Shown: positions 47,155-53,969, counted from the stretch's first letter. The stretch: 64,000 nt of DNA from an uncultured Pelagibacteraceae bacterium (GCA_902634045.1 CACPJE010000001.1:4319-68318); one strand, 5' to 3'. Numbers and translations: made by a program. Notes: generated from the sequence alone by a model not told the origin.

Positions 47155-48498
47155 CTAACTCCAAGGGAAAGGACTATTTGATACAGGATGTAGCTTGCCT
47201 TCTTCATACCTTGAGAGTCTGAACGGTTCTAATAAAGCACTCTTTTCACCTAATACTTCTTCGGCAACAAGCTTGCCTACTCCAAGCATTTTATATCCAT
47301 GATTTGAGTCAGCTATAACATATACATTTTCTCTAAACTGATCAAAAACAGGAAAAGAGTCAGGAGTAAAGCACCCCAATCCGCCAGTGGCTCCTTTTTT
47401 AAATAGGTGAGATTTACCTTCAAAACGTTTATGACAAAATGCTAATGCAGAACTCCACATGTGAGCAAACTTGTCATCAATGATAAATTCCTTAGACTCT
47501 GGACCATAAGGATCCACTGAAATACCATCACCTCCCGGCTCTCCAACTTTGTAAGGAGATGATCCACCTTGAACACCATTAAAATGAAAATCTGGTTTAT
47601 AATAAAGTCCCCAGACTTCATCAGTGATTAGAGATTTATCAACATCTGAATAAAGTGGGGCATCTGTATCAACATGAATGACAGGAGGCATTTCACCATT
47701 ATCAGTTTTTAAAAAATCTGGTTCAACTCCAAGAACCCCTTCGGTTAGATACCAATATTGCCACATAGGAACATTAGAATGAACTGTACCATTAGACTTG
47801 ATTGAAACTTCGTTTGGTAAATCAAGCATATCCCAGAATGATTTAATCCACGGTCCAGCACCTATGATAACTTGATCACATTTCACTAAACCTTTATCCG
47901 TTTCAACTCCTGTTACAGCTTTTGAATTTGAACCATATTCAAATCCAGTAACAGTAGTTCCAGTTAGTATCCTAACCCCTTCTGCCTCTGCCTTAGTCGC
48001 TAAACCATATATAGATGAAGTATTATTTGCATATCCACCTTTTTTTTCATGAAGTACACTTGTTACACCTTTAGCCTGCCAATCACTGAACATGGATTTC
48101 ATATATGAGTCTACTTCTTTTTCACCTTGAATAAAGGTTGACTCATAGCCAATATCTTTTTGTTGTTCATAAATAGATGCTACGTCTTCCTCCATACTTG
48201 CAGGACTGATTTGCATGTAACCGCAATTGTGATAATGAAAATTTTCTGGATCACTTTCCCACACTTCTACAGAATGCGCCATAAGCTCACGCATTGCAGG
48301 CTGAAAATAATTATTACGAATTACGCCACAAGCAATCCCACTTGCACCAGAGGCAATGCTTCCCTTTTCAATTATAAGAATCTTACTTCCGTCACCTTTT
48401 CCTTGTGACTTTAATTTTTGAGCTAAATGAAGTGCAGTACTTAGACCATGAATTCCTGCACCAATAATTATATATTCAGCTTTTTGTGGAAACGACAT
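47155..48498 (-). CDS. FAD-dependent oxidoreductase (DAO/SoxB-like, stand-alone)
   Basis: 447 aa with the N-terminal motif IIIGAGIHGLSTALHLA. No GcvT domain and no partner subunits. Confidence 0.85.
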   Translation of the reverse strand: MSFPQKAEYIIIGAGIHGLSTALHLAQKLKSQGKGDGSKILIIEKGSIASGASGIACGVIRNNYFQPAMRELMAHSVEVWESDPENFHYHNCGYMQISPASMEEDVASIYEQQKDIGYESTFIQGEKEVDSYMKSMFSDWQAKGVTSVLHEKKGGYANNTSSIYGLATKAEAEGVRILTGTTVTGFEYGSNSKAVTGVETDKGLVKCDQVIIGAGPWIKSFWDMLDLPNEVSIKSNGTVHSNVPMWQYWYLTEGVLGVEPDFLKTDNGEMPPVIHVDTDAPLYSDVDKSLITDEVWGLYYKPDFHFNGVQGGSSPYKVGEPGGDGISVDPYGPESKEFIIDDKFAHMWSSALAFCHKRFEGKSHLFKKGATGGLGCFTPDSFPVFDQFRENVYVIADSNHGYKMLGVGKLVAEEVLGEKSALLEPFRLSRYEEGKLHPVSNSPFPWS

Positions 48499-48672: not shown

Positions 48673-51030
48673 ATGGAGTTAGATTTAACTGGATTCAATG
48701 TTAGAAAAACTCAGCCATATAATGCTGGTATTTTAGGTTTACCTGAAGATGTAGAGCGTTATGTAGCAAAAGCACAGGGACTAATTGGTTTTGAGACTTT
48801 TGCAGGAGATACAATTTCGATAATTAATTCAGAAGGCAGCCAACTTGCTGAAGTTGTTGCATTTGACAATTTAGGTAAATGCTCTTTAGAAATTATAAAT
48901 TGTAAAGCAAATAATGAAGCTTCATTTATAAAAAAAATATTATCGAATAGCCATGACAATAAATATCTTCTAAATAAATTAAAAAAGAAAAATATTGATT
49001 TTCATCAAGCTGTTTCTATAAATCTTTTTAATTTAGAAACAAAAGTCAGAGAGTCAATTGACCTAGAGTGTCATGAAGACGGTTTTGTTATTATTGCAGC
49101 ACCTGGAGAGGATATGGCAGTCGATGCACAAAATCCTGCAACAGATATAGAGGTAAGAGTTAAAAGAAAAAATAGAATTAATAATAAGTCTAATTATTAT
49201 TTGCCTCCTCCACTAGCTGATGTCAAAGATGAATTTATCATAAACAATAGCACAGCAACATCTTATGAAGTTGAATCAGGAGATTTTATTCAAGTAATCG
49301 ATTTATATGGAAGGCAATGTTCTGATTTTCAGGTTTTTGATGCTGCAAAATTGGAAAAGGGAATAGAGCTAAGCATTGATCCAATAGTAACCCGAAGTAT
49401 CATAGGATTAAATTATGCAAAGCCGGGGTTGTTTGCTAAATATTTTGATAGAGATCAAGACGCACTTGTTGAAGTTATTCAAGATACATGCGGAAGGCAC
49501 GATACATTTGGAAATGCTTGTAGTTCAAAATACTATGAAGATGTAGGGTATTTTGGTCACGCAAATTGTTCTGATAATTTTAATACTGCCCTTCAACCTT
49601 TTGGTTTAAATGAAAGGCGGGCATGGCAAGCTATTAACTTATTTTTTAATACTGGATTAGATGCAGCCAATGTTTTCTTTTTTGATTTGCCTTGGTCAAC
49701 ACCTGGAGACTATGTTTTATTTCAAGCTCAAAAAAACTTAGTAGTAGCTTCTTCTGCCTGTCCTTGTGATATTGATCCAGCAAATGACTGGAATCCGACA
49801 GATATATGCGTTAGAGTTTATTCTAAGAAAAACTTTTTTTCTAAAGCTATGGCTTATCGCAGGAATCCAGATTCAGATGTTTCTCTAACAAAGCAGACTG
49901 CTTTCCATGAATGTACATCTAAATTAACAAAAGATTACATAGAATTCGCAGGTGTCTGGATACCAAACAAATATGATAATTATGGAACCGTTGCAGAGTA
50001 TACAGCTTGCAGGAATAATGTAGCAATGATGGATCTTTCCTCTCTTAAAAAATTTGAGGTAGTTGGTCCTGATGCTGAAGAGTTAATGAATACTGCACTT
50101 ACTCGGAATATAAAAAAATTAGCAATCGGACAGGTTATCTATACAGCAATGTGCTATGAAAACGGTACTATGATAGATGATGGAACTTTATTTAAATTAG
50201 GTGATGCTAATTTTAGGTGGATTGGTGGAAGTGACTATTCTGGAGAATGGTTGAGAGAGTTAGGAAAGAAACTGGAACTCAGAGTTTCAGTTAGATCTTC
50301 ATCTGATCAACTTCACAACATCTCAGTTCAAGGTCCAAACAGTAGAAATGTTTTATCAAAAATTATGTGGACTACACCTGCTAGCCCAGGAATTGAAGAT
50401 TTAAAATGGTTTAACTTTAATATTAGTCGTTTGAATGACCACCTAGGCATTCCTGTAATGCTATCTCGAACAGGTTATACAGGTGAACTTGGATATGAAG
50501 TTTACTGTCATCCAAAAGATGGCCCTAAAGTATGGGATGCAATATGGGAGGCAGGTCAGGAGTTTAATATAGCTCCGATGGGGTTTGCCGCATTAGATAT
50601 GTTAAGGATTGAAGCTGGTCTTATTCTAGGCGGAAATGAATTTAGTGATGAAACAGATCCATTTGAAGCAGGCATTTCTTTTACTGTGCCGCTTAAGTCT
50701 AAAGAAGCTAATTTCATTGGACGAGATGCGCTTGTTAAAAGAAAAGAAAATCCATTGCGTAAACTAGTTGGATTAGAAATTGAAGGTAATGAACATTGCG
50801 GTCATGGAGATTGTGTTCATATAGGAAGAGGGCAGGTGGGAGTTATTACAAGCGGCATGATCTCGCCTACTCTAAATAAAAATATAGCATTGTGCAGAAT
50901 TGATATTCATTCTTCTGAAAAAGGAACAGAAGTTGAAATTGGAAAACTTGATGGTCACCAAAAAAGAATCAAAGCAAAAATCACTTCATTTCCTTTTTAT
51001 GATCCAACAAAAAGTAGAGTTAAAGCTTAA
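48673..51030 (+). CDS. tdm: Trimethylamine N-oxide demethylase (Tdm-type: DUF1989-like + GcvT-like fusion)
   Basis: 785 aa. The N-terminal half carries GDFIQVIDLYGRQCSDFQVFD and a Cys-rich ACPCD. The C-terminal aminomethyltransferase-like half carries MDLSSLKKFEVVGPDA and RTGYTGELGYEVY. Confidence 0.85.
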   Translation: MELDLTGFNVRKTQPYNAGILGLPEDVERYVAKAQGLIGFETFAGDTISIINSEGSQLAEVVAFDNLGKCSLEIINCKANNEASFIKKILSNSHDNKYLLNKLKKKNIDFHQAVSINLFNLETKVRESIDLECHEDGFVIIAAPGEDMAVDAQNPATDIEVRVKRKNRINNKSNYYLPPPLADVKDEFIINNSTATSYEVESGDFIQVIDLYGRQCSDFQVFDAAKLEKGIELSIDPIVTRSIIGLNYAKPGLFAKYFDRDQDALVEVIQDTCGRHDTFGNACSSKYYEDVGYFGHANCSDNFNTALQPFGLNERRAWQAINLFFNTGLDAANVFFFDLPWSTPGDYVLFQAQKNLVVASSACPCDIDPANDWNPTDICVRVYSKKNFFSKAMAYRRNPDSDVSLTKQTAFHECTSKLTKDYIEFAGVWIPNKYDNYGTVAEYTACRNNVAMMDLSSLKKFEVVGPDAEELMNTALTRNIKKLAIGQVIYTAMCYENGTMIDDGTLFKLGDANFRWIGGSDYSGEWLRELGKKLELRVSVRSSSDQLHNISVQGPNSRNVLSKIMWTTPASPGIEDLKWFNFNISRLNDHLGIPVMLSRTGYTGELGYEVYCHPKDGPKVWDAIWEAGQEFNIAPMGFAALDMLRIEAGLILGGNEFSDETDPFEAGISFTVPLKSKEANFIGRDALVKRKENPLRKLVGLEIEGNEHCGHGDCVHIGRGQVGVITSGMISPTLNKNIALCRIDIHSSEKGTEVEIGKLDGHQKRIKAKITSFPFYDPTKSRVKA

Positions 51031-51040
51031 TAAATAATTT

Positions 51041-51406
51041 ATGCCTTCATTGTCTGATTTAAGAAAAGTTTCTAATATTGAAACTCTTAAATGGGAATTA
51101 TTAGAAGAAGAATCTGCTGGTCAGGATGGGAACACTTGGTGGTACAACTTGAGTTATGATCTTGAAACAGGCGAGGGTTCATATCTTTACAAAATGGATC
51201 CAGGAACTAAGTCTAAGCCTCACTTGCATGAAGGCCCTGAGGAATTTTTTATTTTAGAAGGCGACTTAACTGACTCTGATGGCTATACTTATAAAAAAGG
51301 AGACTTTGTACATCTTTCATCCGGATCATTGCACTACAGTACAACAGTTACTGGCTGCACAATAGTTGTGACTCATAGAGGGAAATATATTTTTACTGAC
51401 AATTAA
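51041..51406 (+). CDS. Cupin-domain protein (ChrR-like cupin), unknown function
   Basis: 121 aa with both cupin metal motifs intact (PHLHEGPEEFFILEG and GDFVHLSSGSLH). Starts 10 nt after the tdm stop. Confidence 0.75.
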   Translation: MPSLSDLRKVSNIETLKWELLEEESAGQDGNTWWYNLSYDLETGEGSYLYKMDPGTKSKPHLHEGPEEFFILEGDLTDSDGYTYKKGDFVHLSSGSLHYSTTVTGCTIVVTHRGKYIFTDN

Positions 51407-51417
51407 TAGTATTCATT

Positions 51418-52632
51418 ATGAAAAGTTTTTTTGATAAGAGTTATTTCTCTTATTTAGTTATATTAGGTGGAAGTGTCCTATTACTGATTTCATTTGGAAT
51501 CAGGCATACATCAGGACTTTATCTTGTCCCAATCTCAGATCACTTACAGACTGGTCGAGAAATATTTGGTCTTGCTGTTGCGATTCAATTTCTTTTAATA
51601 GGCATCGGATCACCATTGTTTGGAGCTCTGGCAGATAAATATGGATCAGGAAAGGCAGCCTTGCTAGGCGTTTTTTTGGTTTTAATTGGTTTGTATTGGA
51701 TGGCTCACGTTGACTCCAGTTTTGAGATCATAGCTTCTCAGGCAATATTTGGATTAGGTGCGGCTGGATGTGGAACAGCTGTTGTATTAGGAGCAGTTGG
51801 AAAATCAGTACAAGAAAAAAATCGCACTCTATCTTTAGGTATTGTTATGGCTGCAGGATCCCTGGGTCAATTTTTGCTAGTACCTCTAGCAGGATTTCTT
51901 ATTCAAATCTCTGATTGGTCTGCATCCATTCTTTACTTAACTTTAATTGCTGCAATCATGCTTATTTTTTGTTTTCCATTAGATTATGCTGGAAAGTCAG
52001 ACACTATTGAAAAAGATACAGGCCAATCTTTAAAAGATGCACTGAAGGAAGCATTTAAATCAAAAAGTTATAATTTGCTTACCATAGGTTTTTTTGTATG
52101 TGGATTTCATGTTGCTTTTATTGCAACTCACCTTCCTGCTTATTTAGAAGATCTAAATCTTCCCTCATGGATTGGCAGTTGGTCTTTAGCCTTAATAGGA
52201 TTATTTAATATTTTTGGGACTTTAATTTTTGCAAGACTTGGTGATAAAATTTCTAAGAAAAATCTTTTAGTTGTACTTTATTCTCTGCGGTCTGTTCTCA
52301 TTCTTATATTTTTAATACTTCCTAAGAATGAAATAACAATATTAGTTTTTGCTGCTGTACTTGGAGTATTGTGGTTAGCAACCGTTCCTTTGACGAGTGG
52401 AATTATAAGCGTCGTATTTGGTATTAAATATATGTCTATGCTTTATGGATTTACTTTTCTATCACATCAATTCGGATCTTTTTTAGGATCGTGGTTTGGA
52501 GGAAGACTATACGATATGTATGGATCCTATGACTTGATGTGGTGGTTATGCATACTCTTGGGATTTGCATCTGCAGCTATGCATATGCCGATTGTAGAGA
52601 AGGCAGTACCAAGATTATCTTACCAATCTTAA
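51418..52632 (+). CDS. MFS transporter (oxalate/formate antiporter-like), substrate unknown
   Basis: 404 aa, 12 TM, with an MFS loop motif (GALADKYGSGKA). Confidence 0.85.
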   Translation: MKSFFDKSYFSYLVILGGSVLLLISFGIRHTSGLYLVPISDHLQTGREIFGLAVAIQFLLIGIGSPLFGALADKYGSGKAALLGVFLVLIGLYWMAHVDSSFEIIASQAIFGLGAAGCGTAVVLGAVGKSVQEKNRTLSLGIVMAAGSLGQFLLVPLAGFLIQISDWSASILYLTLIAAIMLIFCFPLDYAGKSDTIEKDTGQSLKDALKEAFKSKSYNLLTIGFFVCGFHVAFIATHLPAYLEDLNLPSWIGSWSLALIGLFNIFGTLIFARLGDKISKKNLLVVLYSLRSVLILIFLILPKNEITILVFAAVLGVLWLATVPLTSGIISVVFGIKYMSMLYGFTFLSHQFGSFLGSWFGGRLYDMYGSYDLMWWLCILLGFASAAMHMPIVEKAVPRLSYQS

Positions 52633-52634
52633 AG

Positions 52635-53969
52635 CTATTTAGACTCCATAAACGTTTTCATCGAGTCATCCATCGCTTCACCCCATGCTGTATGGTGCAA
52701 GGGAGCGACAGTTCCGGTTACAGGCGAAGAAAAAGAACGATTCCGATATGTCATAATATCCTCTTCTTTATTATGTTCCCATTCCTTAAAGTGAACCCGA
52801 ATTAACTCAAAATCTATTTCTGGATAATCGGTAGCTTCATGTAAATCCTTTGTATATTCTGTTTGGAAGTCAATCATTTGAATTGGATCTTCTAATTTCT
52901 CTTCTAAAGCAACCCAATTATTAATATCTTTATCAATTTCCTCAGCACTAGGCATCTCAATTTTTCCCATGATAACGTCTCTTGCATACCAGGCTTGGCA
53001 ATCAAACATATTAAAAGTATGAAATTGGTCTTGCATTCCGAGATACATCAAACTGTGATTGTCTTGCCAAACAACCCCTTTATAAAGTTTAGGAGGATAG
53101 AGTCTATTGTGTGTTTTAAGTTTTAAGTTATCTTCTAAGTAAGGAAAATGATGAAGGTAACCACTACATAATATTAATGCATCTACATTTTGAGTATGAC
53201 CATCTTTAAAGGTAGCTTTGTTTCCATCAAGTTTATCAAGGTAATGAACTTCTTTCATTCCATCAGGCCACTTAAAACCCATTGGATTATTTCTATAGCC
53301 AATCGTTACAGATTTAGCTCCATACTTGTAACACTGAAGTGCTACATCTTCAGCAGAATAGCTGCTTCCTAATACTACTACATCTTTACCTCTAAATTCT
53401 TCTGCATCCCTAAAATCGTGAGAGTGCAAGATACGACCAGGAAAAGATTGCATGCCTTCATACTCAGGTATGTAAGGAACAGAAAAGTGTCCTGAGGCTA
53501 CCACTAAATAATCAAAATTTTCTTTTGAAGTTGTATTTGCCTTTTTATTTGTTGATGTAATTTCATATTGTGACCCATTATAAATTACATTTGTTACAGC
53601 GGTTCCAAATCTAATATATTTTTTTACGTCAGCATCCTTTGCTCGACCTAAAATATAATCAAATAAAACTTCTCTTGGAGGAAATGATGGTATGGCTTGA
53701 CCAAAATGATGATCAAAAGAATAGTCAGCAAACTCTAAACATTCCTTTGGTCCATTTGACCAAAGATAGCGATACATGCTATTAGGAACAGGATCTCCGT
53801 ATTGATCTGAACCAGTTCTCCAACTATAGTTCCATAAACCCCCCCAATTATCTTGCTTTTCAAAGCAAACAACGTCTGGAATTGTTTCCCCTTTAGCTTC
53901 AGCTTGTTGGAAAGCTCTTAGCATTGATAAACCGCATGGTCCAGAACCTATAATTGCAACTCTACTCAT
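52635..53969 (-). CDS. tmm: Trimethylamine monooxygenase (bacterial flavin-containing monooxygenase)
   Basis: 444 aa. FAD site GSGPCG, NADPH site GSSYSA, and FMO motif FPGRILHSHDF (FxGxxxHxxxF). Confidence 0.9.
   Translation of the reverse strand: MSRVAIIGSGPCGLSMLRAFQQAEAKGETIPDVVCFEKQDNWGGLWNYSWRTGSDQYGDPVPNSMYRYLWSNGPKECLEFADYSFDHHFGQAIPSFPPREVLFDYILGRAKDADVKKYIRFGTAVTNVIYNGSQYEITSTNKKANTTSKENFDYLVVASGHFSVPYIPEYEGMQSFPGRILHSHDFRDAEEFRGKDVVVLGSSYSAEDVALQCYKYGAKSVTIGYRNNPMGFKWPDGMKEVHYLDKLDGNKATFKDGHTQNVDALILCSGYLHHFPYLEDNLKLKTHNRLYPPKLYKGVVWQDNHSLMYLGMQDQFHTFNMFDCQAWYARDVIMGKIEMPSAEEIDKDINNWVALEEKLEDPIQMIDFQTEYTKDLHEATDYPEIDFELIRVHFKEWEHNKEEDIMTYRNRSFSSPVTGTVAPLHHTAWGEAMDDSMKTFMESK

Follow-up and report, generated by a model that had tools for sequence, protein, structure and literature searches.

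Why should a gene for a small cupin protein and a gene for a membrane transporter lie between tdm and tmm, the genes for trimethylamine N-oxide (TMAO) demethylase and trimethylamine (TMA) monooxygenase? The question is raised by a stretch of DNA of 64,000 nucleotides (hereafter the window, with positions counted from its first letter) from an uncultured Pelagibacteraceae bacterium (GCA_902634045.1, CACPJE010000001.1:4319-68318), whose SAR11-type genome is 61% complete. The first gene (51041-51406, + strand) encodes a stand-alone, tdm-linked Cupin_7 protein of 121 aa, assigned by its Pfam Cupin_7 match and its placement in a clade. The second (51418-52632, + strand) encodes a 404-aa transporter of the major facilitator superfamily (MFS), recognised by MFS_1 and with distant likeness to the OFA and MCT families. 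The linked cupin gene is optional and sporadic, and perfectly linked to tdm where it is present. With moderate confidence, we regard the cupin clade as an optional accessory of the module for TMAO import and demethylation, likely a small metal-dependent enzyme, and the MFS gene as a separate local insertion.

Linkage of the cupin gene to tdm

Homologues of the cupin, many at 60-89% identity, were collected in a search of 5.8 billion proteins, and 80 loci were recovered when the cupin alignment was run against genomes sampled at one per species. At these loci, all homologues of at least 50% identity, and several at 43-49%, adjoin tdm on the same strand wherever the contig reaches. In a maximum-likelihood tree of 111 proteins, a branch with 97/95 support separates a 51-protein clade, with the window protein inside it, from 60 paralogues. 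All 46 clade members with enough contig have tdm as a same-strand neighbour. The other five are on contigs that end before the expected position of tdm (downstream of the cupin in L055, L077, L083 and L115, upstream of it in L041), and none of the 60 paralogues lies beside tdm. The adjacency label changes 4 times on the tree, compared with a mean of 35.6 after shuffling, and not one of 500 shuffles gave so low a count. The sequence-only reading had proposed looking for co-occurrence of both genes with tdm in other genomes; for the cupin, the outcome is strongly positive.

It could be argued that the cupin and MFS genes both lie beside tdm by accident and have nothing to do with its function. 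SAR11 genomes are compact, with short gaps the rule, and most tdm loci are without a linked cupin. However, adjacency in 46 of 46 cases, across several gene orders and several bacterial orders, together with the outcome of the shuffling, is beyond chance. As an account of both genes, this explanation is barely credible. It is contradicted for the cupin, and for the MFS gene it is essentially the same as our best explanation.

The cupin gene occurs in at least three arrangements. The first, tmm-tmoX-tmoV-tmoW-cupin-tdm, is found around a protein that is 81% identical to the window cupin (P0009), with overlaps of 4 nt and 1 nt in tmoW-cupin-tdm. A 60% identical protein seen on 214 contigs (P0099) has the same gene order, and the series tmoX-tmoV-tmoW-cupin-tdm occurs in SAR116, Paracoccaceae, Ruegeria and Sedimentitalea. 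In the second, found in HIMB59/SAR11-type cells (P0044, 73% identical), tdm-cupin faces tmm and there is no MFS gene. The third, tdm-cupin-MFS, was found only in the window and in a genome of the same genus (G001). Carriers include SAR116, HIMB59/SAR11-type single cells, uncultured pelagic Paracoccaceae and 12 Ruegeria (among them R. atlantica CECT 4292, R. conchae TW15, R. faecimaris DSM 28009, R. denitrificans CECT 5091 and R. halocynthiae DSM 27839), as well as Tropicibacter, Sedimentitalea, Albidovulum, Cypionkella and Rhodobacter.

Two loci have unusual features. In Tropicibacter sp. Alg240-R139 (L075:10001-12587), an extra open reading frame (ORF) of 126 aa lies between cupin and tdm, and tmoW appears as two ORFs by ORF calling. 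A 3-kb contig from a metagenome-assembled genome (MAG) labelled Gammaproteobacteria (L043) carries a tdm-cupin-tmm segment nearly identical to that of HIMB59/SAR11-type single-cell genomes. Thus, it is probably a binning error and not a gammaproteobacterial occurrence.

Among 40 SAR11 relatives, tdm-cupin-MFS-tmm was found only in G001. In the genus labelled g4, a tmoX of a second type comes immediately after tdm; in the Pelagibacter-like complete genomes of genus g6, that place is taken by a 115-aa gene and a gene for a SoxB-like flavoprotein. The cupin homologues of g4 and g6 are only ~44% identical and are located elsewhere than tdm, either adjoining a beta-lactamase-family gene or between genes for an alpha/beta hydrolase and a racemase, the latter a few kb from soxBDAG. 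By synteny within SAR11 alone, a conserved link between cupin and tdm would have been refuted.

The cupin and Tdm proteins were compared for their histories. The Tdm tree was made with FastTree and has 75 rows, six of which are labelled cupin-less and in fact carry the cupin. Cupin-bearing Tdm fall into two separate clades, one SAR11/HIMB59-type and one of roseobacters and SAR116; the former also holds two cupin-less g4 genomes, and its sister is cupin-less Pelagibacter. In the cupin tree, SAR11-type cupins nest inside those of roseobacters and SAR116. Forcing the roseobacter/SAR116 cupins to be monophyletic costs 28 log-likelihood units (approximately unbiased (AU) test, p = 0.007), for groups that were chosen after the cupin tree had been seen, a choice that lessens the weight of the result. 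An AU test that placed SAR116 cupins inside the SAR11-type group was not significant (p = 0.39), and only the wider nesting is supported. Because the cupin tree conflicts with the Tdm tree, it appears that the cupin gene moved without tdm and was kept next to a resident tdm, on its other side. Such a return to tdm after independent movement would argue for a functional tie more strongly than synteny that was simply inherited.

Perfect linkage goes together with rarity. In an even sample of the class (401 genomes), 33 genomes have tdm and an adjacent cupin occurs only in the window's own genome; the family hidden Markov model detected no cupin within ~4 kb of tdm in 27 sampled loci and did detect the positive controls. 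In an even sample of the Ruegeria (roseobacter) family (151 genomes), 43 have tdm and 2 have a linked cupin, with query genomes counted. The clade is small, with 7 representatives at E <= 1e-30 among 1.84 billion. Distant paralogues were identified in 12 of the 33 tdm-bearing and 13 of the 368 tdm-less genomes, never adjacent to tdm, an enrichment that is confounded by relatedness.

One contig, from a MAG labelled Flavobacteriales (L060:7307-11217), appears to show loss of the gene. It is probably mis-binned, as its genes are SAR11-type and 81-89% identical to those of the window. Here tdm is followed by an 86-aa cupin remnant and then tmoX, and tmm and the MFS gene are missing; it looks like a single deletion took the 3' end of the cupin gene, the MFS gene and tmm together.

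Metal site, fold and possible role of the cupin

The cupin matches Pfam Cupin_7 (PF12973) over residues 29-112 (57.9 bits, cut-off 27, 1e-15) and also Cupin_2 (2e-8). Metal-binding cupins have a motif 1 of the form G-x5-H-x-H-x3,4-E-x6-G and a motif 2 ending in G-x2-H. Both patterns are present in the translation (G55...H61-L-H63-EGP-E67...G74 and G87...G95-SL-H98), just as the sequence-only reading had described two intact metal-binding motifs. For the predicted ligands, H61, H63, E67 and H98, conservation is 98-100% within the 51-member clade and complete in the 60 paralogues. Also invariant in clade and paralogues are E68, D78, D80, D88, S100 and C106, and the tdm-linked clade is marked by N36, L92 and H112. 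The AlphaFold model (predicted local distance difference test score, pLDDT, 95.5) consists of a single cupin barrel preceded by a short helical segment at the N terminus. Its best Foldseek matches are Dke1-like acetylacetone dioxygenases (template-modelling (TM) score 0.75-0.79); numerous small cupins of the Mn, Fe or Zn type rank next. An ESM Atlas search returned generic Cupin_7 clusters only.

Some distant relatives of the cupin are encoded among GMC, Rieske, PhyH and luciferase-like oxidoreductases; others have genes for a creatinase, a binding protein and an enzyme of the GcvT type as neighbours. As these relatives lie among catabolic enzymes, an enzyme fits better than a regulator. The invariant site of three His and one Glu, the conserved barrel interior and the placement of relatives in amine and oxidoreductase catabolic clusters suggest, more specifically, a small metal-dependent enzyme. 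In our preferred explanation, the clade is distinct and monophyletic and consists of cytoplasmic, stand-alone Cupin_7 proteins with a predicted metal site. The protein would be made together with Tdm, as is suggested by the observed adjacency on the same strand and the often overlapping stop and start codons, and it would act on TMAO or a TMAO-derived compound as an enzyme rather than as a regulator.

In other Alphaproteobacteria, paralogues of the cupin are also encoded by neighbouring genes in tandem or are fused into two-cupin proteins of 250-285 aa (L121:7294-8073; L137; P0244, P0245, P0246). One of these clusters with genes for GMC, luciferase-like, PhyH and Rieske oxygenases. A further cupin paralogue (G007:C34:3028-3348) contains two stops and looks like a pseudogene.

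The metal site is shared with a signalling protein. The nearest solved sequence is the ChrR anti-sigma factor 3o14 (E = 3e-8, over its cupin domain only), and Cupin_7, the best family of the window protein, is also that of the C-terminal cupin-like domain of ChrR, whose His-x-His...Glu...His motif aligns. The cupin could accordingly be imagined as a ligand-sensing regulatory domain for TMAO, dimethylamine (DMA) or oxidative stress. However, ChrR as modelled by TIGR02451 has about 216 aa and two domains, the N-terminal one a zinc anti-sigma domain, whereas the 121-aa cupin stands alone, with neither an anti-sigma nor a DNA-binding domain. It scores 25.7 bits on that model (cut-off 124.5), with residues 47-108 aligned to model positions 130-192 only. 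Its context is a catabolic operon and not a sigma-factor pair, there is no adjacent sigma-factor gene, and a search for fused forms of the clade cupin among longer proteins returned none, only one uninformative 217-aa match. The catabolic company of its relatives, described above, also argues against regulation. An identification as ChrR itself is ruled out by the missing anti-sigma domain and the score on TIGR02451, and to a regulatory role of this type we assign very little probability. The sequence-only reading had foreseen that the cupin might cluster with ChrR-type domains. It does so as regards its best family, and parts from them in domain content and on the ChrR model.

Two other groups of small metal cupins are informative. 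The Dke1-type dioxygenases (3bal, 2o1q) are likewise single-domain proteins and superpose over ~120 residues, but identity to the cupin is only 18-24%, and beta-diketone chemistry is not expected in the TMAO pathway. DddK of SAR11 (5tfz/5tg0), which ranks 46 among the Foldseek matches of the cupin model, is a small SAR11 cupin for a marine osmolyte, with the same four ligand positions and a TM score of 0.72. Pairwise identity is 28%, however, and the Tyr two residues after the Glu ligand, which we take to be a catalytic residue of DddK, is replaced in the cupin by Phe69, invariant in 111/111 relatives (DddK was compared via the orthologue L021:5754-6164, E = 1e-66 to 5tfz). The analogy with dimethylsulfoniopropionate (DMSP) lyases, drawn from the sequence alone, is therefore weak.

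A 2026 cryo-electron microscopy study found that Paracoccus Tdm holds only Zn and has no iron site, with the chemical mechanism open; Zn and Fe(II) had earlier been proposed for the enzyme of Methylocella silvestris, and reported Michaelis constants (Km) of Tdm are millimolar (PMC13619132). This disputed chemistry would accommodate accessory factors, without being evidence that one exists. The cupin might pair physically with Tdm, as a small subunit, as an activator or to deliver metal, and tune its kinetics or metal loading. The dispute over mechanism and metal content (PMC13619132) would suit such a partner, as would the strict same-strand adjacency and overlapping stop and start codons, which are typical of proteins made in a fixed ratio. 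On the other hand, characterised Tdm is active alone (PMC13619132; PMC5520151 for the pathway), no Tdm residue apart from one trivial position (397) sets both cupin-bearing clades off from cupin-less Tdm, no fused forms were found, and the metal site is shared by paralogues found without tdm. We consider a physical partnership a tentative idea, less likely than an accessory enzyme and the one to be reckoned with first among the alternatives. Since published Tdm works alone and most tdm loci are cupin-less, the cupin is in any case not needed for core Tdm catalysis.

A bolder proposal, which we think improbable, is that the cupin provides a missing catalytic or activating part of TMAO demethylation in oligotrophic marine bacteria, a non-haem metal centre produced along with the Zn-only Tdm. 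If true, the cupin would demethylate TMAO itself, or would lower the Km of Tdm from millimolar toward the nanomolar TMAO of seawater, and it would bear on the dispute over the need of Tdm for iron.

The linkage also indicates which pathway enzyme the cupin follows. Ruegeria atlantica CECT 4292 (G438) and Sedimentitalea todarodis KHS03 (G441) have tmoXVW-cupin-tdm, and no tmm was found in either genome at E <= 1e-50. Thus, the constant neighbour of the cupin is tdm, and a cupin that requires Tmm (for example, one acting on N-hydroxylated DMA) was rejected. The idea had been prompted by genus g4, where tdm is present, no tmm was detected and a linked cupin is absent (G004, G007, G010, G013 and G016; loci L025 and L030). 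The genes after tdm are here a divergent tmoX, with 40% identity to that of the window, tmoV and tmoW; to judge by gene content, they would use imported TMAO and not TMA.

Several points weigh against an accessory enzyme. The tdm-linked cupin is rare (~1 in 20-30 tdm loci), and its contribution must therefore be conditional. Many of the 46 tdm-adjacent cases come from related species, 12 being Ruegeria, and the cassettes have possibly been transferred whole; independent linkage events are few, about 3 to 5. The enzyme role is argued from the fold, the conserved residues and the gene context, and in ChrR the same metal site is used for signalling rather than catalysis.

The MFS transporter

The transporter matches MFS_1 (PF07690) over residues 22-357 (141.9 bits, cut-off 33.4, 3e-41). 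It fails both OFA models (TIGR00890, 91.9 bits, cut-off 374.85; TIGR04259, 56.3 bits, cut-off 335) and the SfMCT L-lactate model (NF049980, 96.8 bits, cut-off 320). Its nearest solved relatives are OxlT and SfMCT (E = 7e-14 and 2e-9), with which it shares the 12-helix MFS_1 architecture. However, the substrate-binding Arg272 and Lys355 of OxlT are replaced by Thr268 and His350, replacements that are conserved in SAR11 orthologues, and Thr268 also takes the place of the carboxylate-binding Arg280 of SfMCT. A carboxylate substrate is therefore doubtful. The sequence-only reading had called the protein a transporter of the oxalate/formate-antiporter type, which is acceptable at the level of the superfamily and goes too far at the level of the family, given the failed OFA models and the absence of Arg272 and Lys355.

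The gene is single-copy in G000 and G001, and 20 of 24 genomes of this SAR11 family, some of them in genera g2 and g3, have an orthologue that is 65-75% identical. A match is present in 37 of 41 SAR11 genomes. For g2 and g3 the figure is 14 of 17, and tdm was not found in any of these 17 genomes. In g4, which has tdm, the orthologue is on other contigs than tdm or 60 kb away. Its neighbours are patatin, LysE and MatE genes in g4, methyltransferase genes in g3, and putA and dddK in one g2 genome. Loci of HIMB59/SAR11-type cells have tdm-cupin-tmm with nothing between cupin and tmm. For the MFS gene, the outcome of the co-occurrence test proposed in the sequence-only reading is thus negative, with orthologues in tdm-less genera and apart from tdm elsewhere. 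On this distribution, the transporter has no conserved tie to methylated-amine metabolism, and the cupin and MFS genes have separate histories. We picture it as a single-copy SAR11 transporter whose gene changes position between genera and was inserted between cupin and tmm in this genus, where it is probably co-transcribed.

The g2 genome with the distinctive neighbours is G002, in which the MFS orthologue lies between putA and the DddK orthologue (L021:1385-6164). The notion that the MFS gene and small cupins travel together was rejected, as the MFS gene is beside dddK in G002 but not in three other g2 genomes. In a SAR11 relative, an MFS orthologue with four stops (G005:C2:194466-195590) looks like a pseudogene.

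The tight spacing speaks against a mere local insertion. The gap of 11 nt between cupin and MFS genes in the window, and an overlap of 1 nt in G001, could mean that the transporter has acquired a local role and serves the pathway in this genus, for example by exporting dimethylammonium or importing TMA. SAR11, in which dimethylammonium is the end product, is without the DMA monooxygenase dmmDABC (PMC5520151), the carboxylate-binding Arg and Lys of OxlT and SfMCT are absent, and one genome of the same class (G070) has a small multidrug resistance (SMR) cation exporter gene between tmoW and tdm. Against such a role, the single-copy orthologue is kept in SAR11 genera where tdm was not found and is far from tdm in g4, its neighbours differ in every genus, and HIMB59/SAR11-type relatives keep tdm-cupin-tmm without it. 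We therefore consider a pathway role rather unlikely, and prefer the separate local insertion.

The SMR gene of G070, a 1.4-Mb genome, encodes a 110-aa protein (L153:6381-6713; PF00893, 2.6e-24) on the same strand as its neighbours in the order tmoW-SMR-tdm. It is a second efflux-type membrane gene recruited into a tdm cluster. The case of the MFS gene warns against reading function from gene position alone.

The locus and the published pathway

The genes on either side of the cupin and MFS genes are confidently identified. Upstream, tdm (48673-51030, + strand) encodes a 785-aa TMAO demethylase with DUF1989, GCV_T and GCV_T_C domains in Pfam, which passes the equivalog model NF053776 (1107.5 bits, cut-off 1100) and is 91% identical to its orthologue in G001. 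Downstream, tmm (52635-53969, - strand), convergent with the MFS gene, encodes a 444-aa trimethylamine monooxygenase with a Pfam FMO-like domain, which passes NF058570 (751.1 bits, cut-off 675). Gaps are 10 nt from tdm to cupin and 11 nt from cupin to MFS, and the MFS and tmm stops are 2 nt apart. All of these coordinates were re-derived and are identical to those of the sequence-only reading. Judged by the ratio of nonsynonymous to synonymous substitution rates (dN/dS) with respect to G001, which is ~0.03 for the cupin and ~0.07 for the MFS gene, similar to tdm and tmm and calculated with saturated dS, the two ORFs are real genes.

No promoter- or terminator-like signals above shuffled expectation were found between tdm, cupin and MFS genes, and an Rfam scan of 46-56 kb of the window gave no match. 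The tdm-cupin-MFS transcription unit proposed from the spacing is made plausible by that spacing, for this genus only (the window and G001).

Divergent from tdm is a gene for a 447-aa SoxB-like FAD oxidoreductase (47155-48498, - strand). This neighbour of tdm is kept in SAR11 genera g1, g4 and g6 and in HIMB59-type cells (L025-L030, L035, L042-L049). Because SAR11 lacks dmmDABC (PMC5520151), the SoxB-like protein is a candidate for the dimethylamine-oxidising step. In another SAR11 relative, tdm itself is split, with two in-frame stops (G037:C1:290573-292854), and looks like a pseudogene.

The published genes of the TMA/TMAO pathway are tmm, tmoXVW, tdm, dmmDABC, tmoR and tmaR. The cupin gene shares cluster and strand with tdm and, in most carriers, with tmoXVW, but it is outside this scheme. 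In the literature library searched, no paper has tdm/tmm or 'TMAO demethylase' together with cupin, and we found none that names the protein; the sequence-only reading, too, placed the cupin outside the published route from TMA through TMAO to DMA. A 2026 study of regulation in roseobacters mentions, in the interval from tmm to tmoR, only 'a gene of unknown function', conceivably a member of the cupin family (PMC13390433).

When SAR11, SAR116 and roseobacters turn over TMAO and methylamines, they contribute to the marine nitrogen cycle and to the release of volatile amines into the atmosphere. All steps of the pathway are regarded as assigned, though the chemistry and metal requirement of Tdm are disputed (PMC13619132). 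As carriers are cultured and genetically workable (Ruegeria atlantica CECT 4292, R. conchae TW15 and Sedimentitalea todarodis KHS03), the proposed role is directly testable. The cupin, tied to tdm in several abundant lineages, is a concrete candidate for an extra step or a helper in this pathway.

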